From the NCBI GenBank assembly GCA_944393135.1, contig CALXZC010000001.1:75748-139747 (forward strand): a stretch of 64,000 bases of DNA, in the 5' to 3' direction. The notes under the pieces were generated by a model. The model did no database searches. It saw nothing but the letters and a program-made list of their open reading frames with translations, and was not told the DNA's origin. Source of the stretch: an uncultured Clostridia bacterium (lineage in GTDB: Bacteria > Bacillota > Clostridia > TANB77 > CAG-508). A program made the position numbers and the translations under genes. Position 1 is the first letter of the stretch; the number at the start of each line of letters is the position of its first letter. This document shows, piece by piece, positions 2,587 to 61,167 of this stretch.

Positions 2587-2985
2587 ATGGATTGGATGTC
2601 AGTTTTAAATCAATGTTTAGACATTATATTACCAGCTATTGCATCAGTAGTGGCCGTTTTATTTGGAGTACTTGGTACAAAAATTAAACAAATTTATAAT
2701 GAAAAAGCACAAAATGAAACAGTAAAAGTGGTTGTAGACAATGTAGTAAAATGGGTTCAACAAGTATATTATGAATTAGAAGGACCTGAAAAATTACAAA
2801 AAGCATTAACAGAAGCAAGCACAATATTAAATGAAAAAGGTATAACAATATCAGAAACAGAATTAGATATGATGATTGAAAGTGCTGTATATGGATTAAA
2901 AAATGGAACACAACAAGCTGAAGAAGTAGTAGAAATATTACCAGAAACAACAGAAACAACAGAAACAGTTATAGAAAATAAATAA
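2587..2985 (+). CDS. small membrane protein with one N-terminal TM helix and acidic C-terminal tail; candidate holin
   Basis: ATG 2587 follows RBS gaaggagga (the track's ATG at 2569 lies inside the RBS); hydrophobic ILPAIASVVAVLFGVLG. Confidence 0.55.
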   Translation: MDWMSVLNQCLDIILPAIASVVAVLFGVLGTKIKQIYNEKAQNETVKVVVDNVVKWVQQVYYELEGPEKLQKALTEASTILNEKGITISETELDMMIESAVYGLKNGTQQAEEVVEILPETTETTETVIENK

Positions 2986-3041
2986 TATATAAAGATTGTA
3001 ATATTTTAGGTTTATAATTTAAGGAAAGGAGAAATAAAATA

Positions 3042-5273
3042 ATGTCAAGTGGAACAATTTCAGCAAGTGGTTCGTGGCATACAGGTCCTACATTGGCAGC
3101 TTCTGGATCTGTTACATTCACAAGACCAGATGAAGCCAGTACTACTATACAAATATCTGGTTCTTTAGGTAACTATCCTGTTCGCCCAGATGATCCGGAA
3201 TATGAATATCATCTAAGAGTTGGTTATTATATAACTATAGACGGACGTACTGTTTGTAGTGGTACTGTTTGTAGTTCTAGTGAAAATGGTAGTGGTAGTA
3301 CCTCTGTAAATGCTACTGCTTCTTCCGACAATAGTTATCCTCGAATTGAAATACATTATACTTGTGGGGAATCCCCTCAATGTACAAAAGGACATCCTGA
3401 TGAGGTTGTAGGTAGTGGATATATTAGTTTACCTTATAACCCATATAAAACACCTACCATAGGTTGTAGCACTTCTTATAATATTTCAATATTTGATCGA
3501 AGAAGGGAAATGTGGGTTGACGCCAATTATTCAGGTGATGATTCTCCTACAACTACATGGGTCGTAGTAAATGGTAATAGAGAAGATTGGAATATAGGAA
3601 ATAGTGGTGGAACTTATGGATTTATACCTAGTCAAAAAGGTGTGTCTGATGGTGTGTCATATACATTTCAAGCCTATAGACAACATAATTATGCTACAGA
3701 TAAAGTAGCTTCTACAAGTTACACATTATATACATATAGAACACCAATTATTAATAGTGTTAGTGTAGATAATCCTAGTTTTAGTGGATTTGGAAAAGTT
3801 AATTTAAGTTGGAGAACAAATGCCAGAAGATGGAGTACAAGTCCAACAGAGGAACCATTTAAAACATACATTAGATTTAATACATCAAGTCCTTTGGCAG
3901 AATGGTTTGAATGTTCAAATAATAATCCTACTGGACCTAATACAAGTAATGAAACTTCTTTACAGTCCGTACAAATAACAAAAGATATGATTGATACTTA
4001 TTTCACCGTAGCTGAAAGATGCCAAGAATCATATAGTACTACCGTACAAATGAAAAGAACAAATGTATCAAGTACTATTGAAGCTGAGAGTAATACATTT
4101 GCAATTACAATACAATTTGCCCCAAAATATGCTCCTAATCAAATAAATTATTGGGATTACAATTCTTCTGCAAGTAATAATAGAGGTAATAGTATAAGTC
4201 CTGGAACAATATGTTATCTAGATTCACATCCTAGGATAGTTATAGATTGGTCTATGCCAAATCAAATAGATAGAGGTGTAATAGACGGATATGAATTATA
4301 TATTTATTCAAGTAGTTCTTATACAACTCATAAAACATTTGATGTTCCTGTGGGAGGTATTGTTACAGATTTATATGGGCAGTATGTAGCAAATATAAGA
4401 AGTGATTTATATAGGGGACAAATGAATTATGTTGGGGTTAGGGCTTATTATATAAATCCATTAGGTGACAAAATGTACGGACCAGAGTTAAGAAAACAAT
4501 TTGTATTTCCACTTGGAAGATTATATACACCAAAAATATCATACCCTGTTAATAATTCAAGATGGCATAATAAAAATTTTAGAATATTATTTGAGTTACC
4601 AACAGATGATGATTATGATGTTTTAAGTAGTTATATTTCAAATGATACATATACATATAAAGAGATTGAATTAACTATTAATGGAACAGTATATAAATAT
4701 ACAACAGACTCTAATATATTCAGTATAAATAAAATGGGTTATAAGTATAGAGTTTGTGTAAATCCATCAATATTAAGTTCATTTCCTGATACAGATACAT
4801 ATAGAATTACAGTAAGGGTACAAAAAAATTATTTTATGAATATTTGGTCCGGCACAAGTAGTACTACGGTTGTATATAAGACTCCTGTTACAAGACAAAA
4901 TTTAGTACAATTTACACCAATATTGGCAACACATTATAAACACGTACAATCAAGTTCAATACGTTTATATAATACATACCCAATAAAGTCTTTACCAACT
5001 AATAATGTGGATCAGGATGTAGGAGATGTTATTTATGCCAAACATTATCAAGCTATATTTGATACAGTTTTAGCAATACAAGATGGAGTAAATACATGGG
5101 CCCGTTATGATTCGGGTAAAGATCGATGTAAATTTCAACAAAACATAGATGAGTTTTCAGGTTCAGATAAAGCAACTAACGATTTAATAACGGCTCAAGA
5201 TGATGAAAGACCAACAAGACAAGGAAGAAATTATTTTAATATTTTAGTAGATAGTATGAATAAGTTATATTAA
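3042..5273 (+). CDS. Ser/Thr/Gly-rich large protein, candidate receptor-binding/structural protein; 5' ~700 nt noticeably GC-richer than surroundings
   Basis: ORF 743 aa; RBS aaggaaaggag; lies between lysis/structural genes. Confidence 0.7.
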   Translation: MSSGTISASGSWHTGPTLAASGSVTFTRPDEASTTIQISGSLGNYPVRPDDPEYEYHLRVGYYITIDGRTVCSGTVCSSSENGSGSTSVNATASSDNSYPRIEIHYTCGESPQCTKGHPDEVVGSGYISLPYNPYKTPTIGCSTSYNISIFDRRREMWVDANYSGDDSPTTTWVVVNGNREDWNIGNSGGTYGFIPSQKGVSDGVSYTFQAYRQHNYATDKVASTSYTLYTYRTPIINSVSVDNPSFSGFGKVNLSWRTNARRWSTSPTEEPFKTYIRFNTSSPLAEWFECSNNNPTGPNTSNETSLQSVQITKDMIDTYFTVAERCQESYSTTVQMKRTNVSSTIEAESNTFAITIQFAPKYAPNQINYWDYNSSASNNRGNSISPGTICYLDSHPRIVIDWSMPNQIDRGVIDGYELYIYSSSSYTTHKTFDVPVGGIVTDLYGQYVANIRSDLYRGQMNYVGVRAYYINPLGDKMYGPELRKQFVFPLGRLYTPKISYPVNNSRWHNKNFRILFELPTDDDYDVLSSYISNDTYTYKEIELTINGTVYKYTTDSNIFSINKMGYKYRVCVNPSILSSFPDTDTYRITVRVQKNYFMNIWSGTSSTTVVYKTPVTRQNLVQFTPILATHYKHVQSSSIRLYNTYPIKSLPTNNVDQDVGDVIYAKHYQAIFDTVLAIQDGVNTWARYDSGKDRCKFQQNIDEFSGSDKATNDLITAQDDERPTRQGRNYFNILVDSMNKLY

Positions 5274-6749: not shown

Positions 6750-6791
6750 AATTTCAAAAGTTCTATCATACATCACTTCCTATAAAATAGT

Positions 6792-6826
6792 AAGAGTAGT
6801 TTATACAAACTACTCTTATTTATTTT
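6792..6826 (+). terminator. rho-independent terminator
   Basis: aagagtagt-ttatacaa-actactctt 9-bp stem + atttatttt. Confidence 0.65.
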
Positions 6827-6846: not shown

Positions 6847-6872
6847 GTAACGTAAGGTGGTGAAATAAGAAA

Positions 6873-9800
6873 TTGAAATTTAAATTACAAGAAAAAGCTA
6901 ATATCGATTGGAATAATTATCTTACTAGGGATGAAGTGAAAAAGTTTCTTAGTAAGGATGATAAAATAGAAAGTGCTGAAAATATTATATATGATACACA
7001 AGGTAATTTCTTTAACAAGTATTGGAAAGATTTTAAAAAACAGGGATGGAAAAAATTAGAATTAGTAAACGATTTAGAAAGATTTTATACTAATGGTCAC
7101 TTAATAACAGAAGGAATACATTTAATAGCTTATGTTAAAGATAAAAAGAGTGGAGAGTATTCTACAATAGAAGATAGAGATTATAATTCTAAAAAAGATT
7201 TTGAAAAAGAATTAAAAGCAAATGGATATAGTAATATATCTATATTAGATAATAGAGATATGTATTTAATTGATAATACTAATTACACAAGAGTATCACA
7301 ATTAAAGAAAGATTTACAACAACTTAAAAAAGATATTAATGATACTAAGGATAAATATCCTGCTTTATATAAAAGTTATGTTAAAGAATATGACAAATTA
7401 AAAACTATATATGATAATGTAATGAAAATATCTTTAACAGAAGGATATGTATTAAAAGGAATACAAGATGGAAAATCTTTTAATATTTCTTTTAACGATA
7501 ATAAAGAAAAATTACAAAAATTTATGGATGAATTACAACCAAAACATAGAAATATAGATATGTTTATAGTAGAAGAAAGTAAGAAAATAGAAGCATTAAA
7601 ACCAATTAAAAAAGGACAAATGAAGATATTAAATATTGGTGGTGAAAAATTACAAGAAAACCTTAAAGATATAGTATTATACCACGGTTCATTAAACACT
7701 AATTTAACTTACTTGGATATAGGTAAGAGTACAGGTAATGGTGACCAATTAGGTAGAGGAATATATCTAACAACTGATTATGAACAGGCTCAAAGTTATG
7801 CAGGTAATAATGGAAAAGTATATAAAGTTAAATTAGATGATAGTTTAAAATTATTTAATTTAAATGACAAGTTAAGTGATAGTATTAAACAACAATTAAT
7901 TAAAGAATTAGAGAACTCTAATAACAAAGATATTAAAAATTATATTTGTATGTTTAATAGAAAAGTATATGATGTAAAAGATAAACAAGAGGGTTTAAAA
8001 TTTTATCAAGATAAACAAAAAGAATGGGAACAATTAGACGGTAAATATTTTGGTAACAGACCTAAAGTAGTTAAAAATGGAAATAATCTTCAAGTTATAT
8101 ATACAGATTACAGTGATATACAAAGTGCTATAAATAATATGACAGGTGAAAATCTTATAGATACATTAAGAGGAGATATAGACCCAGATGTATTTGTAAC
8201 AATCATAACAAATAGTGGATATGATGGAGTTATAACAAATAATAATCACTGGTATGTAATATATAAAGACATTAATAAAGTTCATATTTTAAATGAAAAT
8301 AGAAAATTTGATAATAAAAATAAATTAGAAGAAGTAAGTAGAAATGAATTATTAGTAAAAACAAAAGGAGAAACAATAACAAGATATAATAAAGCCGCAG
8401 GATATAAAGGATTTAGTATTATAAATATAGATACATCGGATTTATTAAGAGGAAACACATTAACAGTAACTTGTAGAGTAGGAAAATATAATGATGTATT
8501 ACAACTTGAAGATGTATTATATTGGATACAAATAGTCGCAGAAAATAAACAACAAAATCAAATAAATACAAAAGGAATAACAGAAGCGTTATCTAATTCA
8601 ATAGATGGAATGGATATAAAAGTAGATTGTAATTGTGGGGATTTTTGTTTAGAAGAGAATACATTAATAAAATTATTAAATGGACAGGTTGTAACAGTTA
8701 AACAATTAAAAGAGTTATTCGATAAACAAGAAGAATTGTGGATTTATTCAACGGATGAACAAGGTGATTTTAGACCTGGTAAGGTTAATAACGTATGGAT
8801 AAGTGGATATGTAAATGATATGATAAAAGTTACTTTAGATAATGGAAAAGAAATTATAACTACACCAGAACATAAATATATGATGAGAGATGGAAGTTAT
8901 AAAGAGGCACAAGATTTAAAAGAAAAAGATTCTTTAATGCCTTTGTATTTTAGCTATACAAACGGCTATGAAAATGTAAAAAGAAATAGTATTAAGTATC
9001 CAACTAGATTTGATAGTGTGTATAAAATAGTAGCTGATACAGTTTTACAGGAACAAAAACAACTGGCTAAGGATAGAACAGGGGAAGATATTATACAAAT
9101 ACATCATAAGGATTTTAATAAGTTAAATAATTATCCATCTAATTTATATCCTATGGGTAAAATGGAACATTGGATGTATCACGCTCATCTGGGTGGTAAA
9201 AATTTAGAGGCATTACAGGAAGGTAGTAGACGTTTTTGGACATCTGATCCAAGAAGATTTGAAACTAGAGAAAAACAAAAACAAGCTGCAAGGAATTATC
9301 AGTTAAAAATGTGGAGTAGTTTTACACCAAAACAAAGACAAAAATACATTAAAAAATTATCATATAATACTGATAAACAAAAATTATCCCAATCTTTACA
9401 AAATGTATGGAATAATTATACAGAGGAGGAAAAACAACAAAGATTACAAACTAATAATTTTGTAGTAAATAATCCAATGTTAAATGAACAGTTTATAAAA
9501 TCTGATAAGTTTATAGAGAGAAATAATAATATAAGTAATTCTTTAAATAGTTATCATAGTAAACTAACTAAAGAACAAGAACAGAAAATTTACGGTTGGG
9601 CAAAAAATAAACATTTCACAAAAGAACATAGAAAAAAACAAAGTGAAAGTATGAAACAATTTCACAAACAACACCCCGAATTTATACAACAACATTATGA
9701 AGAAATGGTTAAAGGTGCAGAAAAGGGTAGACAAAATAGAAGAAATAAAAAATTACAAAATATGACGGAAGAAGAAAAAGAATTATTTTTATTTAAAGAA

Positions 9801-10604
9801 CAACTTAATAATGTAGATATTAGTAATTATACACTTTCACAGAAAAACGTTATAGGGCATATAAAACCAGTTCTTATTGAAATATATAAAAATAAAGAAG
9901 ATTTTACAAAAGAAACTTATAATAAATATAGAACTAAATTTAATGCACCTAAATTAGAAACATTAGAAAAGATTTTGGGTAGTTGGGTTGATATATGTAA
10001 TAAATATTGTTTAAGTTACAATCATAAAGTAAAAAGTGTGGAATTTATACATTATAAAGAAGCTATACCTGTTTATGATATAGAAGTAGAAAAATATCAT
10101 AATTTCTATGTAGATGCTGGAGTAATGTTACATAATTGTTATAGATTTGCATATATCGCTACCGAATGGGGATATAAATATGGAAAACCAGAAACAAGAC
10201 CAGCTGATATAAGAAATCCAAATGGATTTGGAGCTCTATGTAAACATTTAACAGCAATGTTAAGTAATAAAAAATGGTTACAACAAGTAACAAGTACAGT
10301 TATGGATTGGTGTGAGAAAAATATAGACAAAATAAATGAATTTTTAAAATTAACAGATGAAGATGAACAATTAACCTTACCAAATGAACTTGCTAGACAA
10401 AATGCAAAATTAAGTTGGCAAAATAGAAGTAAAACTAATATAGGTGATAATAATGAAGAACAAAATGCAGAAGATACTGAAAATGATTTACAAGATGTTG
10501 ATAATAACAACGAAGATACTGATAATTCTAATAGTATTAATAATACTACGAATAGTAATGTAGACGACGAAACAGAGCTTGAAGATATAGATGCCAAAAA
10601 ATAA
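6873..10604 (+). CDS. large multidomain protein (1243 aa incl. intein); N-extein with PARP-like/ADP-ribosyltransferase-like signature (YHGS...GRGIYLT), CNC metal-site-like motif at intein junction; precursor containing HNH intein
   Basis: TTG start with RBS aaggtgg; continuous ORF; extein = 6873-8645 + 10137-10604. Confidence 0.7.
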   Translation: MKFKLQEKANIDWNNYLTRDEVKKFLSKDDKIESAENIIYDTQGNFFNKYWKDFKKQGWKKLELVNDLERFYTNGHLITEGIHLIAYVKDKKSGEYSTIEDRDYNSKKDFEKELKANGYSNISILDNRDMYLIDNTNYTRVSQLKKDLQQLKKDINDTKDKYPALYKSYVKEYDKLKTIYDNVMKISLTEGYVLKGIQDGKSFNISFNDNKEKLQKFMDELQPKHRNIDMFIVEESKKIEALKPIKKGQMKILNIGGEKLQENLKDIVLYHGSLNTNLTYLDIGKSTGNGDQLGRGIYLTTDYEQAQSYAGNNGKVYKVKLDDSLKLFNLNDKLSDSIKQQLIKELENSNNKDIKNYICMFNRKVYDVKDKQEGLKFYQDKQKEWEQLDGKYFGNRPKVVKNGNNLQVIYTDYSDIQSAINNMTGENLIDTLRGDIDPDVFVTIITNSGYDGVITNNNHWYVIYKDINKVHILNENRKFDNKNKLEEVSRNELLVKTKGETITRYNKAAGYKGFSIINIDTSDLLRGNTLTVTCRVGKYNDVLQLEDVLYWIQIVAENKQQNQINTKGITEALSNSIDGMDIKVDCNCGDFCLEENTLIKLLNGQVVTVKQLKELFDKQEELWIYSTDEQGDFRPGKVNNVWISGYVNDMIKVTLDNGKEIITTPEHKYMMRDGSYKEAQDLKEKDSLMPLYFSYTNGYENVKRNSIKYPTRFDSVYKIVADTVLQEQKQLAKDRTGEDIIQIHHKDFNKLNNYPSNLYPMGKMEHWMYHAHLGGKNLEALQEGSRRFWTSDPRRFETREKQKQAARNYQLKMWSSFTPKQRQKYIKKLSYNTDKQKLSQSLQNVWNNYTEEEKQQRLQTNNFVVNNPMLNEQFIKSDKFIERNNNISNSLNSYHSKLTKEQEQKIYGWAKNKHFTKEHRKKQSESMKQFHKQHPEFIQQHYEEMVKGAEKGRQNRRNKKLQNMTEEEKELFLFKEQLNNVDISNYTLSQKNVIGHIKPVLIEIYKNKEDFTKETYNKYRTKFNAPKLETLEKILGSWVDICNKYCLSYNHKVKSVEFIHYKEAIPVYDIEVEKYHNFYVDAGVMLHNCYRFAYIATEWGYKYGKPETRPADIRNPNGFGALCKHLTAMLSNKKWLQQVTSTVMDWCEKNIDKINEFLKLTDEDEQLTLPNELARQNAKLSWQNRSKTNIGDNNEEQNAEDTENDLQDVDNNNEDTDNSNSINNTTNSNVDDETELEDIDAKK
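8646..10136 (+). mobile_element. intein (497 aa) with HNH homing-endonuclease domain
   Basis: Starts Cys (CLEENTLIKLLNG, block A), TPEHKYM (block B), internal HH..N..H (IIQIHHKDFNKLNNYPSNLYPMGKMEHWMYHAHLGG), ends VYDIEVEKYHNFYVDAGVMLHN|C (blocks F/G, +1 Cys). Confidence 0.8.
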
Positions 10605-10688: not shown

Positions 10689-11050
10689 ATGAAAAAGAAT
10701 ATTATAAGTGAAACAATGAAATTGTTAAATGAGGAAACAAGTAGTCAGACAGTTACATTAGGTAATGTAAAAGTAAAGTTTATGGACAGGATGAATTAGA
10801 TTGTTTTAATGCTATAAAAAATAAAATACACGGATTAGAATCAAATGTAACAGCTTTAAATATAGATTTAATGCTAGAGGACAATACATATATAGAGTTT
10901 AAAACAAATGATGGTGCTGGAGAATTTATAGTTATATTTAGTAATGAAAATTTTGGAAAAGTAACAAATGTACAAACAACATTTTCAAATCAAGAAATAA
11001 CACAAGATTTTATAACATTAGCAAATGAATTATATACATTAAAAAATTAA
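10689..11050 (+). pseudogene. frameshifted member of paralog family 1 (MKKNIISETMKLLNE...); -1 frame change near 10781
   Basis: 37-aa ORF ends TAG 10797-99; remaining 89 codons continue in -1 frame with no start. Confidence 0.55.
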
Positions 11051-11094: not shown

Positions 11095-11964
11095 ATGAAT
11101 AAAAAGGAAAAATTAGAAGAAGCTACAATAAAAGTATTACAAGGAAAATTAATTGAAAACGAAGATAAAAATTCTATGTTAAAAAGTTTAATAGCAGATA
11201 TAGTTAAAAATAACGATTTTACATTAAACCAAATAAATTTTGTTTTAAGTTGTGATACGACAAGTGGTTGGAGAAAAGAACTTACTACTGAACAAATAAA
11301 ATACATAATAAATAATTATAGTAACTTAATAGGTTCTACAGATAAACAACAAGATAATAATTACGAAGGTAGATTAAATGAATTAATTCGTATTTTAGTT
11401 GTTACTAATGATACTAATTTAACGGATTTCTTATTTAAAAATAATTATTCAGAATCAGACTTATATATACTATTTAGGAATGTGGTATCTGATTTTAAGG
11501 ATAAAAAAATTACTAAAGAACAACTTGATTTTATTATATATTCAAAAATAACAGATGAAGATACTATAGATAGTATAATTAAAGCCTTTAGTGAGGATAA
11601 ATTATCTATAAATCAGATAAAACAAATGATTAAAGACGGTAAAATAGGTTCAAAAAATGATAAAACAAAAACGTCTGGAAATGAACTATTAAATGAATTA
11701 TCTAATCAACTAAATGATGTAATAGACTTAGCATATGGTTGGGAAGTTGATGAGGATAGTATTTCCGGTGTTATAGACGATGATTATACTGTAGACATAT
11801 ATGCAAAAAATAATGGAAATAATATTGTTTTAGAGTATGAAAATAAAGAATATACAGATGTTAATACACTAATAAAAGATGTTATAAAAGATGTGAAAGC
11901 ATATACTCAATCTGTAATAGACGAATATGGTGAATACCCAAATTATTTAAATAATATTAAATAA
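11095..11964 (+). CDS. acidic hypothetical protein, paralog family 2 (N-terminus ..KLEEATIKVLQGKLIE)
   Basis: ORF 289 aa; RBS aaggaggagg; N-terminus shared with ORF 12014. Confidence 0.75.
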   Translation: MNKKEKLEEATIKVLQGKLIENEDKNSMLKSLIADIVKNNDFTLNQINFVLSCDTTSGWRKELTTEQIKYIINNYSNLIGSTDKQQDNNYEGRLNELIRILVVTNDTNLTDFLFKNNYSESDLYILFRNVVSDFKDKKITKEQLDFIIYSKITDEDTIDSIIKAFSEDKLSINQIKQMIKDGKIGSKNDKTKTSGNELLNELSNQLNDVIDLAYGWEVDEDSISGVIDDDYTVDIYAKNNGNNIVLEYENKEYTDVNTLIKDVIKDVKAYTQSVIDEYGEYPNYLNNIK

Positions 11965-12013: not shown

Positions 12014-13255
12014 ATGAATATGAACGATAAATTAACAGAAGCCACTATTAAAGCTTTACAAGGAAAATTAAATTTAACAGAATCGTATGAAGTAACTATT
12101 CAAGAATTAGAAAAGTATATAGACAAACCAACTTCTTACGATGTTGAAGATATAAATAAATATACAACAAAAGGCAATTACCCAACTATAGACCATATAA
12201 TTAAAGTAATGCAAGGTGCTAACGCAGACTGGTTAAATTATACTAATAATGGAAAAGTAGCACATTATTCTATATATCATATTATAGATGTCCTTAGAGC
12301 TTATTCTAAGGGTTACGATGATAAAGGTATACAAGCATTAATGAATTCTTATGGAGTTGAGCATACTGGAGATGTTGGAGAACTTGCTATGAAAGCTTCT
12401 AGATTAAAACTAACAAGTGAACAGATTTCTACAATGGCAAATGAAGATATAGATGATATGTATCAAGAACAAATATTAAATAAAAGAGGTAAAACACAAC
12501 AAACAAATACAAAGAATAAATATACTAATTATTTTAAATCAATAGGATTATCTGATACAGACATACAATATATATTAAATAAATTGCAATCAGAAGACTC
12601 ATATACTGGTAAAGGATACTCAACAACAATTACAAATATGGTTAGGGATAACCTTAATGAGGAAGATGGAAAATTTCTTATACAATTAATAAGAAAATAT
12701 AGACGTGACGACGGTTACAATACAAATAATATGATTGCCTCCTATTATTTAGAAAAAATATTAGCTTCAGGTTTCGGTAGTAAAAACATACCAAATAAAT
12801 TTATTGAAGATATTTATAAAGAACGTGTAAAACCAAAACAAATTGAAGAAATACTATTAGGTATAAAAAATGGTTTAACAACAGAACAAGTATTATCTTA
12901 TATGGACCTAGATTTTAGTCCTCAAAAAATGAGAAAAATAAGACAAGGTTTAGAACAAGGAAAAACAATGGAACAAATATTTGCAAAATCAAAACCAAAA
13001 CAAAAAGAATATTCTGGTTTAACACCAAAACAAATATATGATGACTTATTAAAAGATGAAGGTGAAGATTATTTAAATGATTTAGCTTATGCCTATATGC
13101 AGACTAAAGATTTTGATTATTGGTTAGAGGAAGTAAGTGATTGGTCATTTGAAGAGTATGGTGGATTAATACCAGGAATAATGGAAGAATATAATGTATC
13201 AAGAAGTACAGCTATGGCAGTGGCAAAAAGATTATATAAAGAAGTTTCTGAATAA
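12014..13255 (+). CDS. hypothetical protein, paralog family 2 (..KLTEATIKALQGKLNLTE)
   Basis: ORF 413 aa; RBS taaggag. Confidence 0.75.
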   Translation: MNMNDKLTEATIKALQGKLNLTESYEVTIQELEKYIDKPTSYDVEDINKYTTKGNYPTIDHIIKVMQGANADWLNYTNNGKVAHYSIYHIIDVLRAYSKGYDDKGIQALMNSYGVEHTGDVGELAMKASRLKLTSEQISTMANEDIDDMYQEQILNKRGKTQQTNTKNKYTNYFKSIGLSDTDIQYILNKLQSEDSYTGKGYSTTITNMVRDNLNEEDGKFLIQLIRKYRRDDGYNTNNMIASYYLEKILASGFGSKNIPNKFIEDIYKERVKPKQIEEILLGIKNGLTTEQVLSYMDLDFSPQKMRKIRQGLEQGKTMEQIFAKSKPKQKEYSGLTPKQIYDDLLKDEGEDYLNDLAYAYMQTKDFDYWLEEVSDWSFEEYGGLIPGIMEEYNVSRSTAMAVAKRLYKEVSE

Positions 13256-13978: not shown

Positions 13979-15496
13979 ATGTTATATAATAAAGATACAG
14001 AATACAATATTAAATATATAACAGTAGATGGTGATAAGAAGGAAATAACTTATACACCAGAAAAAGATATGTCAGTACCTGAAATAATTACAATGTTAAA
14101 AAATAAAGATAAAGATTTCTTTAAATTATTAAAAGAAAGTAAGTTTGATAAAGTGTCTAAAAAGATATTTAATAAAGGAAAACAAGATGGTATGACAAAA
14201 GATGATGCTGATGCAATTGCAGCAAGTATAGGAAGAAAAAAGTATGGAAAGGAGAAATTTCAAAAAATGGCACAAAAAGGAAAGAAAACAGAAGCAGATA
14301 ATACTAGTGGAACATTATCAATAGATTTAAATACAGGAGTATTACCTATAGTAGATGTAGATATGTACTCTATGAGTGATATGATAAATGATTTTGATGT
14401 AACACAAAAGGAACTAGATGATATAGTAATGGAGACAGCACCAGAGTATATAGAAGATACATTAAGTGAAATATTATCAGGGGTATCTGTAATTGCAAAA
14501 TCTGTATATCATCCATCACAATATAATTATTCCGGAGATGAATTAGAGTTTACATTAAATTGTGATAAAGGAGGTTATGAATCTCTAAAAGAAAGAACAT
14601 TACAAAATGAATCATTTAGTAAATTCTTAAAAGATAACTATTCTTCACACAGTGGTTTTATATCATCTATGGCAGATAATTTAGATGATTTTGAAACACA
14701 GGAAGAATGGAAACAGGTAGTACAAGTTATAATGTTTAATGTACCACAAAAAACACTAGAATATAATAAAGATGCATATAATGATAAATTTATGGATATA
14801 TTAAGTTCAAATTATCCAATGATAGATGACGAAGATTATGATGACTATGTAAATGAAGATTTAGAAGAAAGTAAAAAAATGATAAAAGAAAATAATGCAA
14901 CTGAAATTGATGAAAATAAAAAAATAGTAGAGGATGATGAGGTAGAAATGATAGATAGTGACAGTAAGGGTGAAGATATGACAGAAACACAAGAAAATAT
15001 GGAACAAGCTGTACAAGAATTAGGGGATATAGATTCTGAGACAGAATTTGGAATAGATACTATTGCAAGTACAATAGATGTATTAATAGCTGATGAACAA
15101 TCTGCAATAGATGGTTATAATTCCTTCTTGGAACAATGTAAAGAAACAATACCGGAAGAATTATATAATACAATAGAAAAAGAATTACAAGAAATAATAC
15201 AAGACGAAGAAGACCATATAAATAAACTAAATACTATTAAAAATGTTCTTCATACAGAAGATGTTCCTTTAGACGAGTCTAAAATATTGGAAAGTGTAAA
15301 AAACATAGAAGATTTAGAAGTTGGGGATGAATTAACAATACCTTATGCTAGAGGTCCTAAATATACAGAGGACAAATCACAATGGGTAAAAGGTAAAGTT
15401 ATAGATATGGGTACTGATTATATAGATTTAGAAGTACCAACAACTTTAACCGTAACAAAAAGACAAGCAGAAGAATGGTTGTCTAAATTACAATAA
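13979..15496 (+). CDS. highly acidic hypothetical protein (505 aa)
   Basis: RBS aaggggg; followed by strong terminator. Confidence 0.75.
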   Translation: MLYNKDTEYNIKYITVDGDKKEITYTPEKDMSVPEIITMLKNKDKDFFKLLKESKFDKVSKKIFNKGKQDGMTKDDADAIAASIGRKKYGKEKFQKMAQKGKKTEADNTSGTLSIDLNTGVLPIVDVDMYSMSDMINDFDVTQKELDDIVMETAPEYIEDTLSEILSGVSVIAKSVYHPSQYNYSGDELEFTLNCDKGGYESLKERTLQNESFSKFLKDNYSSHSGFISSMADNLDDFETQEEWKQVVQVIMFNVPQKTLEYNKDAYNDKFMDILSSNYPMIDDEDYDDYVNEDLEESKKMIKENNATEIDENKKIVEDDEVEMIDSDSKGEDMTETQENMEQAVQELGDIDSETEFGIDTIASTIDVLIADEQSAIDGYNSFLEQCKETIPEELYNTIEKELQEIIQDEEDHINKLNTIKNVLHTEDVPLDESKILESVKNIEDLEVGDELTIPYARGPKYTEDKSQWVKGKVIDMGTDYIDLEVPTTLTVTKRQAEEWLSKLQ

Positions 15497-16797: not shown

Positions 16798-19700
16798 GTG
16801 GAAGAAAATCAATTATATACAATTATACTACGACACGATACAAGTTCACAATGGATGGTTAATGACCCTATTTTAGCTTTAGGAGAATACGGTGTTGAAG
16901 ATGATACACATAGAGTTAAACGTGGGGATGGACAAACTAAATGGTCAGAATTAACATATGATACATTTGGACTTGAATATATGTTAACATTTGAAAATAT
17001 ACGAGGAGATGTTACAGATAATAAATCATTACAAGAAGCTTTAAACCAAAAATTATCTGTAGATACATTTGAAGATTCTAACAATAGTGTAATTACATCT
17101 ATAACATTAAAAGAAGAAACAGGAAAAATAGGTAGAATAACAAAAGTAAGTAAAAATGTAAAATTTAATAATACTGTAACAAATTATATAGATATTATTT
17201 CAAAAGATAATTCTATTAATGGAATATGGAGTATAGATAATGATGGAGTAAATATATTAAATTTACAAGCTGTTTCTTCTGTAGAAAATTATGCTCCTTA
17301 TAAAGAATACAAAATTAATCAACTATGTTTTTATAATAATGGATTGTATAGATGTATAGAAACACATATAGCAACTCCAGATTTAGATAAAACAAAATGG
17401 ATAACATTATCTTCATTAAATGCTAGTGATATTAATTTTAATCCAGGTTCTACATCTTTAAAATCTAAAACAGTAAAAAATGCTTTACAAGAATTATCAA
17501 ATAAAGTAGATGCAAAAGTAGAACAAACAACACAACCAAATAAAATATATGGAACTAATGGTAAAGGGGAACAAATATTATTAAGTAAAGATGATTTAGG
17601 AAAAGTAGATAGTGTTAATAATATTAATCCAGATGAAAATAAAAATGTAACAATAGAAGCCAAAGATATACAATACGATAGTGAAAATAGTACTTTAAAT
17701 GTAAAACAAGCTATAGATTTAAAAGCAAATAATGTAGATGTAAAAGAACAATTAAATACTAAAATAGATAAAGATATTGGAGACACTGTTGTTACTAATA
17801 TAGAATTATCAACAGACACAGATATACCTGCCTTTCATATTGTAAAAGCTGATACAGATAGTAAAAGTGAAACAGATTTATATTTACATTTAAAATCAGA
17901 AGGAAATATACAAACTTATGTAAAAAATGACGGTATTATAATTGACAGTACAAATATAGATAATAAGTTAAGTGAGATTTCAGGTAATGAAGACGAATTA
18001 CAAGCATCTATACAAGAAATAAATACAAAAGTAGAAACAAATACAAATAGTATAACAACATTACAAGAAAAAACAGATTCATTACAACAAAACATAAACA
18101 CATTAAATACAGATGTGGATAATGTGGAAAAAACGGTGGAAATTTTAAATAACAAATTATTAACAGTAGATTCAACAATAGAAAATATACAAGAGGATAT
18201 TAATACAATAAATGAAACAAATGAACAACAAGATACACAAATTGCTGATAATACACAAAGTATTGAAGATTTAGATACAAAGTTAACAACAGAAGTACAA
18301 AGATTAGATAATAAAAATACAGAACAAGACACACAAATTACAACAATAAATAATACACTAGACGATATTAATAGTGATATTGATAATATAGATGAGAGTA
18401 TTGCCGATTTAAATTCAGATATAGATAGTATAGAACAAGTAAATACAGAACAAGGAAACAAATTAGGATTAATAGATACTAAATTAGTAGATTTAACAAA
18501 TAAAGATACAGATTTACAGGCACAAATAGATAATATTAATGAAGGACAAGGAACACAAGATACAGAAGTTGAAGGTATTAAAAAACAAATAGAAACAATT
18601 AATACACAAATAACAACAATAAATGAAAAAGACACAGAACAAGATAATACAATAGAAGGAATACAAAATGATTTAACACAATATAAATCTGATATGCAAG
18701 AAACAATAGAACAATTACAACAAGAGGATGCTAGTTTACAACAAGAAGATAGAAATATAAATGGACAAATTGAAACTATAAAATTAGATATCACAAATAT
18801 AAGAGATACACAAGATGTATTAAATACTAATATAGAGGCTAATACACAAAGTATAGAAGAATTAGCTGAAAAAGAGGCTAACGATGTAAAAACACTACAA
18901 GCTAAAGATACAGAGTTAGAAACTAAAAATACAGAACAAGATGGTCGATTATCAAGTATTGAAAACGTTAATTCACAACAAAATACAAGATTGGATAGTA
19001 TAGAAAAAACACAAACACAATTAGATACAGATATAAAAGGTGCTTTACAAGAAATACAAGATTTGGATACTAAAGTGGAAGAACAACTTGAAGATATACA
19101 ACAAATTGCAGAAGACCAATCTACTATGATTGAAAGCATTACAAATAGTGTTGATGTAATAAATAATACTATAACAAATATTAAGAATAAAAATACAGAA
19201 CAAGATAAAGCTATAGATAATTTAACAACAAAAGTAAATAGTAATAATGAAATATTAACAGAAGAAATAGATAATATAAATACTTTAAACCAACAACAAG
19301 CACAACAAATATCAGATATAAATAGTTCTATATCAGATATAAATAGTTCTATTATGAACATAAATGATACAGTTGCAGATATAAATGCAAGTAACTCATA
19401 TTTAGATAATAAAGTAACAAGTATGGCAGGTGAATTAACAGCTGCAACTGAAAATAATACAAGACAAGATGGAGAAATAACTACATTACAACAAGATTTA
19501 GAACAACTTGCCGAAAAAGTAAGTGGAGATGAAACAGAAACAGATACAAATATACAAGAAATAAAACAAGATATAGAAGAATTAAATACAAGTTTAGAAC
19601 AAACAAATAGTAATGTAAAAACAAATACACAACATATAGCAACTAACACAAGTGATATAGATAGTTTAAAAGAAAGAATGACAACAGCCGAACACGGTAT

Positions 19701-22700
19701 AGAAACTAATACACAAAATATAACAACAAATACACAAAATATAGCAACTAATACAGAGGCTATAAATACTTTGAAAACTGAAACACAACAAAAATTAGAT
19801 ACAAAATTAGATAAAACATTTGCAGATAATGTAAATAAAGAATTGGTAAGTGATGTTAGAATTAGTCCTGTTACTCAACAAGAAGCCTCAGTATTATTAA
19901 CAATAGAACAAGATAAATTAAATGTTGAAACTGGTGCTGTAAATACAAAGTCATTACAATTTAAATCAACAGATAATACAATACTTGCTACACCAGAACA
20001 GGATGAAGAAGGACATATTACAGCAATTAATTTGGCAACAAATTTAAATACAGATGTAAATTATTTTATAACTTCACAAACACTTGATGAAACAATAGGA
20101 AACACAAATACTATTCCACAAAATACAATAACAGCAATAACAAAAGAAGGAGTAGAAGTAGAAGATATTATAACAGATAGTGAAGGTACTTGGTCAAGAG
20201 TACAAAGTATAGATGAAGAACAAGATACAGTAACAACAATAACATTCCAAAAACAAAAGGATGCTAGTTGGGGAACAATACAAGGTTCAATATCAAATCA
20301 ACAAGATTTACAAAATGTATTAAATACTAAACTTGATAAAACATTTGCAAGTGGTGAACTACAAAATAATATAATGGGAAGTATAGAATTTAGTCCATCA
20401 GGATTAAGAAACGGTGTATTTATAAGAACAAAAACTATTAATCCAACAAATTCACAAATAAATACATTTGAATCTTATATAACTTCTGATACAAAGCAAT
20501 TAACATTTACACCTGGTTCAGATGGAATAGATTTAGGTGTAAATATAGAGAATGTAAATTTTGATAATAGTAATACAGGATTAACAAATAATAAAGTAGG
20601 AAATGTGTTAAGAGAATTAAAAACATTAGATAATGCAAAAGTAACAACAGAGACATTTAATACATTTAAAACTCAAAATACTCAGGATATAAATAATGCT
20701 GTACAAACAGCAACACAAAGTATTACGGAGGCATATACAAATGCTGATAAGGCTTTAAAACAAGAATTACAACAAGCTGATAGTAATTTACAACAAAGTA
20801 TCACAGATTTACAAAATAATAAATTAGATAAAAACCAAGGAACAAGTAATACAGGAAAACATTTAATAGTAGATGAAAATGGATTAATAACTCCACAAAC
20901 ATATACAGTAGATGTAGGTGTAAAAACAGTAACAAGTGATTATAATTTAGTAGATAATACAAATGCTGCAAATCCAAAAATATTACAAGATACTACTAAA
21001 CTTGATAAAGCCTTTAGTGATAAATATTTAACAGCATTAGGTATAGAACAAAATGACGAACAAGGTGTATTAACTGTAACAACAAAACAAGTAGCAAATA
21101 ATTCAGATGTAATAAGTACTGTAGATTTTGTAGGATTAGGAAGTATAAAAGTTACATCCGCATATGATGAAGATAAACAAAATGATACAGTTAAAATAGA
21201 CGGTAGTGAAATAGTTACACAAATAACAAGTGGATTAAGTACAAAAGTAGATAAAGTAACTACACCGAAAGTAATTTATGGAACAACAGCAGATGGACAA
21301 CAAACTACATATAGTACAACAGAAATTGGTTCTGTAAATAGTGTTAATGGAGTAACTCCACAAAAAGATACAACAAATATATTAATTGACGGTTCACAAA
21401 TTAATGTAGATGAAACACAAGAAGATAAAATAACAATTAAAGATAGTTTAAGTAATAAACTAGATAAAGTAAGTGGAGATACAGTATATTACGGTACGAA
21501 TGCCGAAGGTAATCAAACAACATATAAAGTTGTAAATAATTACTTAACAAATCCATTAGTATTATCTGCAACAACACAAGATATAATAAGATTTAGATAT
21601 ACAAGTGTGGATAACCAAGGAGAGGAAACATTAATAGATAGAAAAATAATTGCAGATGATAAAGATATATTAATTACAGGGCAAGAGGATAGTACAGATA
21701 TACATATTTCTGTAAATTCTGAAAATGTACATTTCGATACAAAGGAAAGTGGATTAACAAGTAATACTATATCAAATGCAATAAGAGAATTAAAAACACT
21801 TGATGATAGTAAAGTTACAACAGAAAATTTAACAACACAGCTTGAAACAATAAATAAAACAATAACAAATAATAAAAAAGAAGTAGATACAACAATACAA
21901 GGAATAGAAACAAATATAGATACTATTGAAGGAAATGTTACAAGCTTAACAAATAATAAACTTGATAAAGTAACAACTGCAAATGTACTATATGGTACAA
22001 ATAGTACAGGAGAACAAACTACATATTCTACAAATGAATTAGGAAAAGTAGAAACAGTAAATAGTATAACACCGGATGAAAATAAAAACATATTAATTGA
22101 TGGAACAAAAATTAATGTTGATGAAACAGAAGAAACAAAAGTTACAATAAAAAATGCTTTAGATACAAAATTAAACAAAGTATCACAAGTAAATAAAATA
22201 TATGGTACAAATAAAGACGGAGAACAAACAACATACACAGTAACTAAACAGGATGATACATATTTGGCATATATTACAAATTTATCAGTAACAGATAATG
22301 AACAAACATTAACATTGAATTTATCAAGACCATTAATTGAAACAGGTGTAAGTACAGAACAACAAACTATAACTTTATTAAATGTAAATAAAGGTATTAA
22401 ATTGGATACTGAAAATGATTTAACATTAATTACAGATTCTGAAACAATACCATTTGATACTAAGACAAGTAGTTTGGTAAGTACAAATATTGCGGAAGCA
22501 ATAAGAGAACTAAAAACACTTGATGATAGTAAAGTAAAAACAACTGATTTTAATAATTATAAAACAGAAGTTACACAAGACATACAAGAAGCTGTACAAA
22601 ATAAACCAACATTGTTACAATATACAAAAAATACAGAATATACAGTAGGACAACTTGTATATATAACAAGAACAGATAATATTACTTTAATGGGATTGGT

Positions 22701-22845
22701 ATTAAAAACATTTACAAGCAATAACACAGAAAATAATACAGCAATACAATCATTTAAAGTAGATGTAGACAGTAAAAACATTTCATTAATTGGAATTCCA
22801 GTTGATTGGAATGATGATATTACAAATGCAGAAGTAACAGAATAA
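16798..22845 (+). CDS. giant tail fibre protein 1 (2015 aa), coiled-coil repeats and triplicated internal modules
   Basis: GTG start with RBS agaggagg; NT(E/Q)QD heptad-like repeats; AIRELKTLDDSKVTTE module x3; YGTN..GEQTTY module x4. Confidence 0.8.
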   Translation: MEENQLYTIILRHDTSSQWMVNDPILALGEYGVEDDTHRVKRGDGQTKWSELTYDTFGLEYMLTFENIRGDVTDNKSLQEALNQKLSVDTFEDSNNSVITSITLKEETGKIGRITKVSKNVKFNNTVTNYIDIISKDNSINGIWSIDNDGVNILNLQAVSSVENYAPYKEYKINQLCFYNNGLYRCIETHIATPDLDKTKWITLSSLNASDINFNPGSTSLKSKTVKNALQELSNKVDAKVEQTTQPNKIYGTNGKGEQILLSKDDLGKVDSVNNINPDENKNVTIEAKDIQYDSENSTLNVKQAIDLKANNVDVKEQLNTKIDKDIGDTVVTNIELSTDTDIPAFHIVKADTDSKSETDLYLHLKSEGNIQTYVKNDGIIIDSTNIDNKLSEISGNEDELQASIQEINTKVETNTNSITTLQEKTDSLQQNINTLNTDVDNVEKTVEILNNKLLTVDSTIENIQEDINTINETNEQQDTQIADNTQSIEDLDTKLTTEVQRLDNKNTEQDTQITTINNTLDDINSDIDNIDESIADLNSDIDSIEQVNTEQGNKLGLIDTKLVDLTNKDTDLQAQIDNINEGQGTQDTEVEGIKKQIETINTQITTINEKDTEQDNTIEGIQNDLTQYKSDMQETIEQLQQEDASLQQEDRNINGQIETIKLDITNIRDTQDVLNTNIEANTQSIEELAEKEANDVKTLQAKDTELETKNTEQDGRLSSIENVNSQQNTRLDSIEKTQTQLDTDIKGALQEIQDLDTKVEEQLEDIQQIAEDQSTMIESITNSVDVINNTITNIKNKNTEQDKAIDNLTTKVNSNNEILTEEIDNINTLNQQQAQQISDINSSISDINSSIMNINDTVADINASNSYLDNKVTSMAGELTAATENNTRQDGEITTLQQDLEQLAEKVSGDETETDTNIQEIKQDIEELNTSLEQTNSNVKTNTQHIATNTSDIDSLKERMTTAEHGIETNTQNITTNTQNIATNTEAINTLKTETQQKLDTKLDKTFADNVNKELVSDVRISPVTQQEASVLLTIEQDKLNVETGAVNTKSLQFKSTDNTILATPEQDEEGHITAINLATNLNTDVNYFITSQTLDETIGNTNTIPQNTITAITKEGVEVEDIITDSEGTWSRVQSIDEEQDTVTTITFQKQKDASWGTIQGSISNQQDLQNVLNTKLDKTFASGELQNNIMGSIEFSPSGLRNGVFIRTKTINPTNSQINTFESYITSDTKQLTFTPGSDGIDLGVNIENVNFDNSNTGLTNNKVGNVLRELKTLDNAKVTTETFNTFKTQNTQDINNAVQTATQSITEAYTNADKALKQELQQADSNLQQSITDLQNNKLDKNQGTSNTGKHLIVDENGLITPQTYTVDVGVKTVTSDYNLVDNTNAANPKILQDTTKLDKAFSDKYLTALGIEQNDEQGVLTVTTKQVANNSDVISTVDFVGLGSIKVTSAYDEDKQNDTVKIDGSEIVTQITSGLSTKVDKVTTPKVIYGTTADGQQTTYSTTEIGSVNSVNGVTPQKDTTNILIDGSQINVDETQEDKITIKDSLSNKLDKVSGDTVYYGTNAEGNQTTYKVVNNYLTNPLVLSATTQDIIRFRYTSVDNQGEETLIDRKIIADDKDILITGQEDSTDIHISVNSENVHFDTKESGLTSNTISNAIRELKTLDDSKVTTENLTTQLETINKTITNNKKEVDTTIQGIETNIDTIEGNVTSLTNNKLDKVTTANVLYGTNSTGEQTTYSTNELGKVETVNSITPDENKNILIDGTKINVDETEETKVTIKNALDTKLNKVSQVNKIYGTNKDGEQTTYTVTKQDDTYLAYITNLSVTDNEQTLTLNLSRPLIETGVSTEQQTITLLNVNKGIKLDTENDLTLITDSETIPFDTKTSSLVSTNIAEAIRELKTLDDSKVKTTDFNNYKTEVTQDIQEAVQNKPTLLQYTKNTEYTVGQLVYITRTDNITLMGLVLKTFTSNNTENNTAIQSFKVDVDSKNISLIGIPVDWNDDITNAEVTE

Positions 22846-23126: not shown

Positions 23127-26100
23127 ATGAAAGTTAAGTTTAGTAGATGTAATTCAAGTGATTTGGCTTCATTACCTCTTGTAGATGGACAATTAACCTA
23201 TGTAAAAGACACAGGGGATAACTATCTAGATGTAGGTACCACTAGAAATAAAATAACAGATATAGTATTTCTAGATAATGATGAAGCATTAGAACAAATT
23301 GAAAATCCATTATCTAGTAAATTTTACTATGTTAAAAGTTCTAAAAAACTTATGTATTATAATGGAACAGATTATGATACACTTAACGAAGTTGATGTAA
23401 GTGCAGATGATGTACATTTTACAAGTACAGCTGGAATAACAGCAACAAATGTACAAGATGCTTTTGAACAATTAGAAACAAAAGTAAATTCAAATACAAC
23501 TAATATAACATCAGCTCAAACAGACATACAAGAAAATGCTAATAATATTTCTACAATACAACAACAAGTAAGTAGTATTATAACTAAAAATGATACACAA
23601 GATGAAACATTAGGACAATTACAAACAAATATAGCTTCTATACAAGGGGAAATACAGGATTTAAAAGATAGCGTTCCAACAGATGAATCTTTTACAGAAT
23701 TAACAAATAGAGTATCAGCTGTTGAAGCAAAAAATACAACACAAGATACTAATATAAAAGATTTACAAAATAAGGATAAATCACAAGATACACTTATATC
23801 AGGTCTACAAAGTAATGTTGGTACACTTCAATCAGATTTAGATACAGCTGAAGAAAATATATCAACAATACAAGGTGATATTACTGATATAAAAGAAAAA
23901 GATTCTACACAAGATACAAGTATACAAGCATTACAAGCTTCTGTTGGAAATGTAGAATCAGCTGTAACAAAAGTTAAAGGTGATATTAGTACATTACAGG
24001 CAACAACAGGACAACATACAACAGATATAACAGGTCTTAAAAAGGATGTTTCAACTATTAAAGATACTGTTGGTACTAATACAAGTGATATAAGTTCTTT
24101 AAAAACAAGAGTAGCAACTAATGAAAACGATATAGATACGTTACAATCAAGTGTAGAAAGTATTAATACTAATATAACAAGTATAGAAGGTAATATAGAT
24201 ACTGTTGAAGGCAGTGTAAGTACATTACAACAAACAGTTAATGGACATACAACAGATATAACAGATTTAAAATCCAAAGTACAAAAAAATACAACTAATA
24301 TAACAAGCTTACAAGGTAATGTTAGTACATTGCAAGGAGATTTAGATACTGTTGAAGAAGATGTTAGTACATTACAAACAAGTGTAAGTGGTTTACAATC
24401 AAGTGTGAGTACAAATACACAAAATATAGCAACTAATACACAAAGTATTGAAAGTATACAAGAAGCTATGGCAAGTACACAACACTTTAGAGGATATTAT
24501 CAAACTATTGCTGAAATAACAAAACTTGAAGGACATACAGGAGATTTTGCTTATTGTGCTGAGGATGAATTTAAATATGTATATAATGGTGAACAATGGG
24601 TAAAAACAGATGAAGCTGTACCAGACCAGACAGTAGAAAAAACAACAATACTTCCATTAATGAATGGGACAGCTACTATTGGTACAGATAATAGATATGC
24701 TCCAGGAAATCACATTCACCCAACAGATACAACAAGAGCAAGTGTAGAGGCATTAGAAGCTCATACAACAAATACTTCAAATCCACATAATGTAACAAAA
24801 ACACAAATAGGTTTAGGTAATGTAGATAATACATCAGACTTAAATAAACCAATATCAACAGCTACACAAAGTGCTTTAAATAATAAGGTAGATAAAGTCA
24901 CAGGAAAAGGTTTAAGCACAGAAGATTATACAACAGCAGAAAAGGAAAAACTTGCTACATTAAATAACTATAATGATACAGAAGTTAAAGCCGATATAAC
25001 TAAATTACAAAGCAATGTAGGTACATTACAAAGTGATGTAAGTACAGCTAAAGAAAATATTAGTACGTTACAAGAAGATGTAACAGGTATAGAAGGTAAT
25101 GTAAGTACATTAACACAAAGTGTATCAACATTAGATACAACAGTTGAAGGACTAGAAACAGATGTAACAGAATTACAAGGTACTGTATCAGATGTAGAAG
25201 AAACCGTTGGCACATTGCAAACAAATTTAAATAATAAAGTAGATAAAGTTCAAGGAAAAGGTTTATCAACAAATGATTATACAACAGAAGAGAAACAAAA
25301 ATTAGCTGGTTTAAATAACTACGATGATACAACTGTTAAACAAGATATTAGAGAATTACAAACAGATGTAGGTGCCTTAGAAACAACAGTTGGAAATCAT
25401 ACAAAAAGTATAGAAACAAATACAACTGATATAACTACTTTAAAAGGTAATGTACAAACATTACAAACTAATCTAGGAAATAAAGTAGATAAAGTAACAG
25501 GTAAAGGTCTTTCAACAGAAGATTATACAACAACAGAAAAAAATAAACTTGCTGGGATAGAAGCAAATGCAAATAATTATACTTTACCAAAGGCATCAGG
25601 AACAGTACTTGGTGGTATTAAAATTGGTAATAATTTAAAGATAGATGAAAATGGTGTAGTTAGTGCAACAGATACTAATACAACATATACAACTATGAAG
25701 GGTGCGACATCAAGTACAGCAGGAACAAGTGGATTAGTTCCAGCACCACAACAAGGACAACAAAATTCATTCCTAAAAGGTGACGGTACTTGGGGAACAG
25801 TAGAAAGTGCAACTTATGGTGAAGCTACACAAGACCAATCAGGTTTAATGTCAGCAAATGATAAGAAAAAATTAGATAATATAGAAGCAAATGCAAATAA
25901 CTATACTTTACCAGTTGCAACAACTACAAGACTTGGTGGTGTTAAGGCAGGTAATAACATAACAATTTCAGAAGATGGAACAATAAGTGCAACAGATACA
26001 AATACAACTTATGAGGTTATGGAAGGTGCAACAAGTGAAGCAAATGGACAATCAGGTTTAGTACCAGCTCCTACACAAGGTCAACAAACAAGATTTTTAA

Positions 26101-42077: not shown

Positions 42078-42255
42078 TTTTTAATTTTAAATTACTTTGA
42101 AAGATATTTGGTAATTTGTTTAATATAAAGATTCTATAAAGATATTATGGACGGCTGAAGGAAACAGTTAGAAATTCCAAAAACTATAAAAATAAAATTT
42201 AAAAGAAAAGTATTAATTAAAAAAAAATAAAAAATAATAAGGAGTGAATTTAATA

Positions 42256-61092: not shown

Positions 61093-61167
61093 GCTCCTTT
61101 GGTGTAATTGGTAGCATACCAGTCTCCAAAACTGTTGGTTGAGGTTCAAATCCTTGAGGGAGTGCCA
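61093..61167 (+). tRNA. tRNA-Trp (anticodon CCA), CCA-encoded
   Basis: Hand-folded cloverleaf: acceptor gctcctt/agggagt (2 G.U), anticodon loop cuCCAaa with U33, T-loop GGTTCAAATCC. Confidence 0.7.

Follow-up and report, generated by a model that had tools for sequence, protein, structure and literature searches.

We describe here a phage gene in which an intein interrupts a zinc finger. The window analysed is a 64,000-nt stretch of contig CALXZC010000001.1 (assembly GCA_944393135.1; all positions given are those of the window), and the gene in question encodes a 1243-aa precursor with a 497-aa class-1 intein, the presence, exact boundaries and mobility signatures of which were established. 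The insertion site lies, on the conservation of its motifs, in a SWIM-type CxC...CxH zinc finger, and the part of the host protein preceding it (the N-extein) carries what sequence profiles identify as a real ADP-ribosyltransferase (ART) signature, of the H-Y-D, ART-PolyVal clade. We think it likely that the gene product is a late-expressed effector with a SWIM-type carrier module that would be functional only after splicing, and that the intein is a mobile HNH intein. The features of the gene are as follows:

6873..10604, + strand: whole gene, an open reading frame (ORF) with a TTG start encoding the 1243-aa precursor
6873..7637, + strand: N-terminal region, aa 1-255, with alpha/beta units and a coiled coil, of a length that differs among relatives
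7656..8147, + strand: predicted ART-PolyVal ADP-ribosyltransferase domain, aa 262-425 (PF18760)
8313..8645, + strand: N-terminal half of the SWIM-type module, aa 481-591, ending in VDCNCGDF with the CxC zinc-ligand pair
8646..10136 (1491 nt), + strand: class-1 intein of 497 aa, aa 592-1088, placed by a Pfam match and an exact indel
9099..9188, + strand: HNH motif inside the intein, IHHKDFNKLNNYPSNLYPMGKMEHWMYHAH (IHHKDF...HWMYHAH), aa 743-772
10137..10433, + strand: C-terminal half of the SWIM-type module, aa 1089-1187, starting with the +1 Cys (CYRFAY) and holding CKH
10434..10601, + strand: low-complexity tail rich in acidic residues and Asn (of its 56 aa, 19 are D/E and 14 are N)

Identification and borders of the intein

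The original prediction had placed an intein at residues 592-1088, and this was borne out by a profile match, by the splicing residues and by comparison with an intein-less allele; every motif it had quoted was also found where it had placed it. The Pfam Intein_splicing profile (PF14890) matched aa 607-1088 with a score of 87.5 bits (E = 1e-24; cut-off 35.8), and the residues required for splicing are all present: Cys592 (in CLEENT), T664-P-E-H667, H1087-N1088, and Cys1089 as the +1 residue. The intein is laid out as Cys1, block B (TPEH, within ITTPEH at aa 662-667), the HNH module, a long basic/polar linker, blocks F/G and the terminal HN, with VYDIEVEKYHNFYVDAGVMLHN at aa 1067-1088 followed by Cys1089. 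Blocks A/B and F/G also align weakly to the PDB inteins Npu DnaE and Pho RadA.

A database search using the conceptually spliced 746-aa sequence as the query returned insert-free relatives of 746-747 aa (P0001, P0003 and P0007; 95-98% identical to the query) together with 1243-aa proteins containing the insert. P0001 is encoded on contig L003, which shares synteny with the window and carries an intein-less allele that is 98% identical; blastn of the window against L003 left a single clean gap at window positions 8646-10135/6, with an intein-less target junction of GATTGTAACTGTGGTGATTTT followed directly by GTATATAGATTTGCGTATGAAGC. Three stand-alone phage homologues also cross this junction without a gap, as seen in the proteins of Bacillus phage HSE3 and Listeria phage LIS04 (DCNCGDF/CYRFAY, the slash marking the junction, compared with DCTCPDFKYRYAY). 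Protein splicing by the Cys592...Asn1088 intein is a prediction from its residues, and one to which purifying selection on the splicing blocks, described below, lends indirect support.

An HNH motif inside the intein had also been predicted, and is present at the expected residues with matches to PHROG 7545 ('HNH endonuclease', 1.2e-5) and, below threshold, to Pfam HNH_3. At the profile level this assignment is the weakest link of the intein evidence: the profile scan placed Intein_splicing well above its cut-off, whereas HNH_3 reached only 14.6-18.5 bits (E = 0.0016-0.025) against a gathering threshold (GA) of 24.8. A sub-threshold HNH_3 match recurs at this position in 7/7 homologous inteins of a divergent set, the best of them reaching 23.5 bits. 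The HH...N...N...H core is complete in the window and is retained in inteins down to ~45% identity. NUMOD3 scored above GA in one homologous intein (P0145) and was not detected with Pfam at E <= 1 in the window's own intein, in which the HNH module is followed by a basic/polar linker of ~240 aa. We predict that the HNH module has endonuclease activity.

Mobility and selection

Comparison of the spliced gene with L003 showed 11 substitutions between -13 and +25 nt of the junction, with ~100 nt on either side of this cluster identical in the two sequences. The changes include GTA to TGT, which replaces Val with Cys and makes the +1 Cys, and GAA to ATC. Such a cluster is what would be expected of co-conversion during homing, of changes that shield the occupied allele, or of both. 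The intein and its exteins also have discordant histories, as the P0013 intein is 99.6% identical to that of the window with exteins which are 73-85% identical, and the P0004 intein is 87.5% identical with exteins at 97-99%. The intein itself is a mosaic in which the first 200 codons are near-identical to L010 and the remainder shows a synonymous divergence (dS) of ~0.55. Its occurrence is sporadic, with carriers in ~9/120 close clusters and in 25 clusters in all. The three kinds of evidence looked for in homing, namely polymorphic presence, signs of co-conversion of the flanks and discordance between intein and exteins, were thus all found.

Taken as a whole, the intein has a ratio of non-synonymous to synonymous divergence (dN/dS) of 0.14-0.24. 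Among its parts, the ratio is 0.03-0.11 in the splicing blocks, 0.08 in the HNH region and 0.22 in the linker. Taken together, the exact indel, the junction substitutions, the discordant identities and the low dN/dS indicate, as far as sequence comparisons can, an active homing intein.

The SWIM-type module as a repeated intein target

The two segments flanking the intein form a module of ~200 aa which occurs in 606 clusters at 50% identity. The family is marked by invariant C-x-C-x-D and G-x-x-C-K-H motifs and a near-invariant YR, and C586, C588, D590, C1123 and H1125 (the last two being the CKH zinc-ligand pair) are invariant in 61 sequences. Weak Pfam SWIM (PF04434) matches were obtained for 35/61 family members, with no such match for the window's own module, and no second SWIM copy was found in the window. 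An AlphaFold2 (AF2) model of the spliced module, made from the 61-sequence alignment, had a predicted local distance difference test score (pLDDT) of 95 and a predicted template modelling score (pTM) of 0.89, and its structural neighbours in BFVD include jumbo-phage proteins named 'SWIM-type domain-containing protein'.

The DCNCGDF motif at the insertion site had earlier been likened to the CxC element of MuF/SPP1 gp7-like head proteins, and this comparison was not supported; the motif is the CxC half of the SWIM-type finger. No Phage_Mu_F (PF04233) match was found for the full protein or the extein (E <= 1) or for the C-terminal module (E <= 10), and the gene is not in the position of a MuF gene, since the portal gene is not adjacent and the neighbours are the endolysin gene upstream and uncharacterised or fibre-like genes downstream. 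The T4 gp2 DNA-end protector was likewise rejected as a homologue of the module (hhalign probability 0.5%).

Among representatives of the SWIM-type module, 25 clusters carry an insert at or beside the DF/C site. All of these inserts bear the signature CL(E/H)E(N/D)T...NFYVDAGV(M/I)LHN followed by C, and they range from mini-inteins of 140-160 aa to forms of 250-545 aa with an HNH motif; in two displaced variants the insert lies before the second Cys of CxC (P0191) or one residue downstream (P0193). Seven further clusters have an unrelated intein directly before the Cys of the CKH motif, in which the N-extein ends in ...L, the intein starts with CF.G.T, and the host sequence resumes after ...VHN with CKH. 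These are either ~360 aa with a LAGLIDADG_3 match, or ~150 aa. Inteins have thus targeted this zinc finger repeatedly, with two unrelated kinds among them. It should be noted that many database proteins start or stop exactly at the intein site, most likely because metagenome assemblies break at the presence/absence polymorphism. We also observed that on a distant T4-like metagenomic contig with a stand-alone SWIM-type module the portal protein (L007 1-1040; Portal_T4) matches Intein_splicing as well.

The predicted ADP-ribosyltransferase domain

A PARP/H-Y-E type ART had been proposed for the N-extein, of which the ART signature stands and the H-Y-E assignment does not, as an invariant aspartate, D412, makes this an H-Y-D domain by signature. 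PF18760 matched aa 256-473, when taken alone, at 35.2 bits (GA 31.2); a DUF3990 match falls just below threshold in the same region, and relatives match PARP. The predicted catalytic residues are H271 in LYHGS (aa 269-273), Y298 in GIYLTT (within GRGIYLTT, aa 294-301) and D412 in VIYTDYSD, with a helical insert of ~100 aa separating Y298 from D412. All three, and the motifs around them, are invariant in sequences down to 44% identity. A profile built from twelve diverse ART domains of the family aligned LYHGSP...GDQYGRGIYLTT with LFHGSP...GMFGAGIYFAE of tankyrase (E = 0.04), and this alignment places H271 and Y298 at the PARP His and Tyr positions. The ART domain of polyvalent proteins has been described as H-Y-D, with the His in strand 1, the Tyr in strand 2 and the Asp in strand 5, a configuration reported for active ART-PolyVal domains (PMC5512222). 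D412 would thus occupy strand 5, and the domain is predicted to have ADP-ribosyltransferase activity.

In some orthologues (P0099 and P0110) the ART-PolyVal domain is replaced by another domain of ~200 aa (LITLYHNT...GIWCST...) and both the N-terminal region and the SWIM-type module are retained. Neither these middle domains nor other N-terminal fusions gave Pfam matches.

Translation start and transcription

The TTG start that had been proposed for the gene is supported by several features of the sequence. No other possible start lies between it and an in-frame TGA located 12 nt upstream, a Shine-Dalgarno sequence lies 9 nt before it, and the first ~130 residues of the protein lack Met and are conserved in homologues, leaving TTG as the only workable start. 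Two upstream features are relevant here:

6854..6863, + strand: Shine-Dalgarno sequence AAGGTGGTGA, read from the sequence
6789..6820, + strand: terminator-like hairpin after the endolysin gene, with a 14-pair stem followed by a T-run

The position of the hairpin suggests that the ART/intein gene opens a new transcription unit (2 terminator-like sites were found, compared with 0.5 expected). A scan for promoters was uninformative in DNA of 26% GC, with 48 matches where 39.5 were expected.

The N-terminal region (aa 1-255) had no match in Pfam or PHROG and was modelled by AF2 with low to moderate confidence; in relatives, additional N-terminal segments are present or some are missing. The acidic tail has counterparts in many stand-alone members of the SWIM-type family. 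Six metagenomic contigs, the longest of 202 kb, encode an identical 1243-aa protein (P0002), and a megablast of the gene against GenBank phages gave zero matches.

Phage context and the position of the module

The gene content of the window, which includes a holin, an endolysin (GH25/CW_7/LysM), giant fibre-like ORFs, a prohead protease of the S77 type and a capsid protein resembling gp23, indicates that it derives from an uncultured myovirus-like phage of ~200 kb with a Gram-positive host. The intein-bearing gene sits between the lysis cassette and the fibre-like genes. By tblastn the SWIM-type module was found in only 5-13 cultured phages. In HSE3, LIS04 and GXN1 a stand-alone module has the tail sheath gene on one side and, on the other, a gp13-like neck gene and one additional gene, and the same position was seen in two metagenomic contigs with T4-like portal, S77, gp23, gp13, gp19 and baseplate matches, so that the neck–sheath position is counted over five inspected lineages; SP-15 also has a stand-alone copy. 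PHROG 1722 ('tail protein') matches the module.

In L006 the module is followed by three genes whose homologues lie at 33-35 kb in the window, and the module has therefore been relocated in the window lineage. At the orthologous position in this ~200-kb lineage, the gene ranges from a bare 259-aa module (L008) up to fusions with the ART or another middle domain. A conserved module of the structural cluster with variable N-terminal domains attached is how one would expect a delivered effector to be built.

Proposed mechanism and alternative explanations

We propose that the gene product is a late-expressed protein of the polyvalent type, made of the N-terminal region, an H-Y-D ART and the C-terminal SWIM-type module. 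The 1243-aa precursor would be unable to assemble the zinc finger because 497 residues part the CxC pair from the CxH pair. Autocatalytic splicing (Cys592, TPEH, His-Asn1088 and Cys1089) would join ...DCNCGDF to CYRFAY... and yield the functional 746-aa protein plus the free 497-aa intein; as this would restore the finger, and hence carrier function, a splicing-competent intein would be tolerated and kept under selection. The endonuclease of the free intein would cut the intein-less alleles of co-infecting relatives, and the intein would be copied into the cut allele by gene conversion along with a few flanking codons. The SWIM-type module probably tethers the enzyme to the virion, the neck or DNA, by analogy with T4 Alt and with MuF- or portal-fused effectors, and the ART, most likely delivered together with the virion, would modify host proteins when infection has just begun. 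Packaging and injection of the spliced protein are suggested by the gene context and by analogy with polyvalent proteins.

We also entertain, as a tentative and on balance doubtful extension, that the SWIM-type module is an unrecognised virion or neck carrier delivering interchangeable N-terminal effectors, that its finger is a hot spot for inteins, and that splicing is sensitive to zinc or redox state and so times maturation. Cys1 and Cys+1 lie beside zinc ligands or are themselves ligands, and splicing could therefore sense zinc or the redox state.

A number of our observations weigh against the reading of a virion-delivered ART effector with a mobile HNH intein, and alternatives can be built on them. 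Besides the window gene lying outside the neck cluster, the distant copies of the module in Maribacter phages adjoin replication genes (primase, ligase) and not structural genes, a search of the literature for virion proteomics of SP-15, HSE3, LIS04 and GXN1 found none, and no fold match to the module was obtained among solved phage neck, tail and head proteins. The latter three would suit a SWIM-type module that serves inside the cell as a DNA- or protein-binding factor (in head completion, DNA handling or regulation), with the ART acting late in the producing cell. We consider this unlikely, given a gp13-like neck/sheath position conserved in the five inspected lineages, the 'tail protein' label of PHROG 1722, and a domain family which is typical of injected polyvalent proteins (PMC5512222). 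The scores of HNH_3, every one of them under the gathering score, raise the question of whether the intein is a decaying passenger, with a working splicing domain and an inactive HNH module, that is now passed on only by vertical descent or ordinary recombination. The mini-inteins found at this site are evidence that the endonuclease can be lost within the family, and mosaicism could stem from general recombination. We judge such decay to be rather improbable, as dN/dS is low in both the HNH region and the linker, the HH...N...N...H core has been kept in diverged inteins, near-identical inteins occur in diverged exteins, and the substitutions are tightly clustered at the junction.

The ART assignment is open to a similar objection. 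When the whole 746-aa extein was used, PF18760 scored 27.7, which is under the GA of 31.2, and the AF2 model of the whole extein (25 close homologues) had a pLDDT of 57.6, too poor to define the ART core, so that the assignment of D412 rests on conservation and the range of the profile match. These results, the ~100-aa insert between the Y and D motifs and the replacement of the domain by an unrelated one in P0099 and P0110 could mean that the ART-like domain has no catalytic activity and plays a structural or NAD/ADP-ribose-binding part, in a protein that is structural rather than an effector. This we regard as distinctly unlikely: the isolated domain scores above GA, and the putative catalytic residues, invariant with their motifs in distant relatives, match the H-Y-D configuration of active ART-PolyVal domains (PMC5512222).

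Other features of the window

The window phage genome has several selfish endonuclease genes. The gp23-like capsid gene (42244-44888) is apparently split, with residues ~9-91 at 42301-42561 and ~96-460 at 43815-44882, and a 306-aa HNH-endonuclease ORF (42713-43633; PHROG 7545) lies between the two halves. This split is probably due to an intron or other mobile insertion; a search of the region with Rfam found no group I/II intron. Just past the capsid gene is a 559-aa ORF (45083-46762) matching homing-endonuclease PHROGs 3339 (2e-68) and 559 ('HNH endonuclease').

Downstream of the ART/intein gene, a 120-aa ORF (10689-11047) that comes after the gene in L003 and L010 is broken by a frameshift in the window (residues 1-30 and 27-120 are in different frames), which accounts for the apparent 490-nt intergenic gap. 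The 289-aa ORF at 11095-11964 is not present in the syntenic L003 and had no Pfam or PHROG match; a ~130-nt copy of the beginning of the following gene (12014-13255) flanks it, and over its first ~20 residues it is similar to the N-terminus of that gene's product. The ORF at 13979-15496 is 505 aa compared with 276 aa in L003, with window positions 14136-14972 lacking an L003 counterpart. Two giant ORFs of 2015 and 2128 aa (16798-22845 and 23127-29513) and a further 900-aa ORF have repetitive fibre, minor-tail or head-decoration PHROG matches, and the 2015-aa ORF contains internal DNA repeats relative to L003. Between the holin and endolysin genes is a 743-aa ORF (3042-5273) with no family match, of which the first ~230 codons (2964-3732) cannot be aligned to the 723-aa L003 counterpart. 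There are tRNA genes at 61093-61164 and 61360-61445 (Rfam RF00005; 54.5 and 62.9 bits).

Comparison with known systems and significance

HNH inteins are counted as rare 'non-canonical' inteins in actinobacteriophages (bioRxiv 10.1101/2025.01.02.630785). The window intein resembles known HNH inteins in having a Hint splicing domain with Cys1, TxxH and a terminal HN followed by Cys, an endonuclease between blocks B and F, insertion at a conserved functional motif, and a sporadic family in which mini-intein derivatives exist. It differs from them in its host, which is the SWIM-type finger of a neck-cluster/polyvalent protein and not an enzyme of replication, packaging or nucleotide metabolism, and in the long linker behind its HNH module, with NUMOD3 seen in a single homologue. 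The original prediction had considered the host unusual, and in keeping with this our literature search found no paper tying inteins to SWIM modules or phage ARTs.

The protein is like the ART-PolyVal polyvalent proteins (Iyer et al. 2017, PMC5512222; PF18760) in placing an H-Y-D ART in a large multidomain phage protein, in being encoded among late/structural genes, and in the variable domain make-up of its orthologues. Unlike them, it has a single recognisable effector domain and no MPTase, MuF, portal or RNA polymerase module; its partner, the SWIM-type module, is not described as a carrier in PMC5512222, and it contains an intein, a word absent from that paper. It may share with MuF/SPP1 gp7 fusions the logic of a conserved virion-associated module with interchangeable effectors, with the difference, besides the lack of a Phage_Mu_F match and of an adjacent portal gene, that the effector is N-terminal and not C-terminal to the module. 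As with T4 Alt, host proteins are the expected targets of this phage ART, and its structural background is T4-like (gp23-like capsid, S77 protease), whereas T4 Alt is a member of the R-S-E clade and reaches the head by means of a capsid-targeting sequence which is cleaved by the prohead protease. The module shares the CxCx(n)CxH signature of the SWIM zinc finger (PF04434) and differs in its long CxC to CxH spacer (~34 aa), with conserved YRFAY and RP..NP.

HNH inteins and phage polyvalent ART proteins are therefore already known. What appears to be new is that the SWIM/ART protein family hosts an intein, that a single zinc finger has served two or three times as an insertion site, and that the SWIM-type module is the constant partner of variable effector domains. 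A list of intein hosts made up mostly of replication, repair and packaging enzymes would thereby gain a structural or effector-type phage family, and two unrelated inteins in one 45-aa finger would mark the functionally critical and most conserved part of a widespread, uncharacterised phage protein. The near-identical intein-plus and intein-minus alleles, with their sharp conversion tract, offer a natural system for the study of homing in uncultured ~200-kb phages. The domain swapping seen around the module is typical of injected effectors and would here take place on a carrier other than MuF or portal, and if packaging proves true, this would widen the range of known routes by which phages deliver enzymes.

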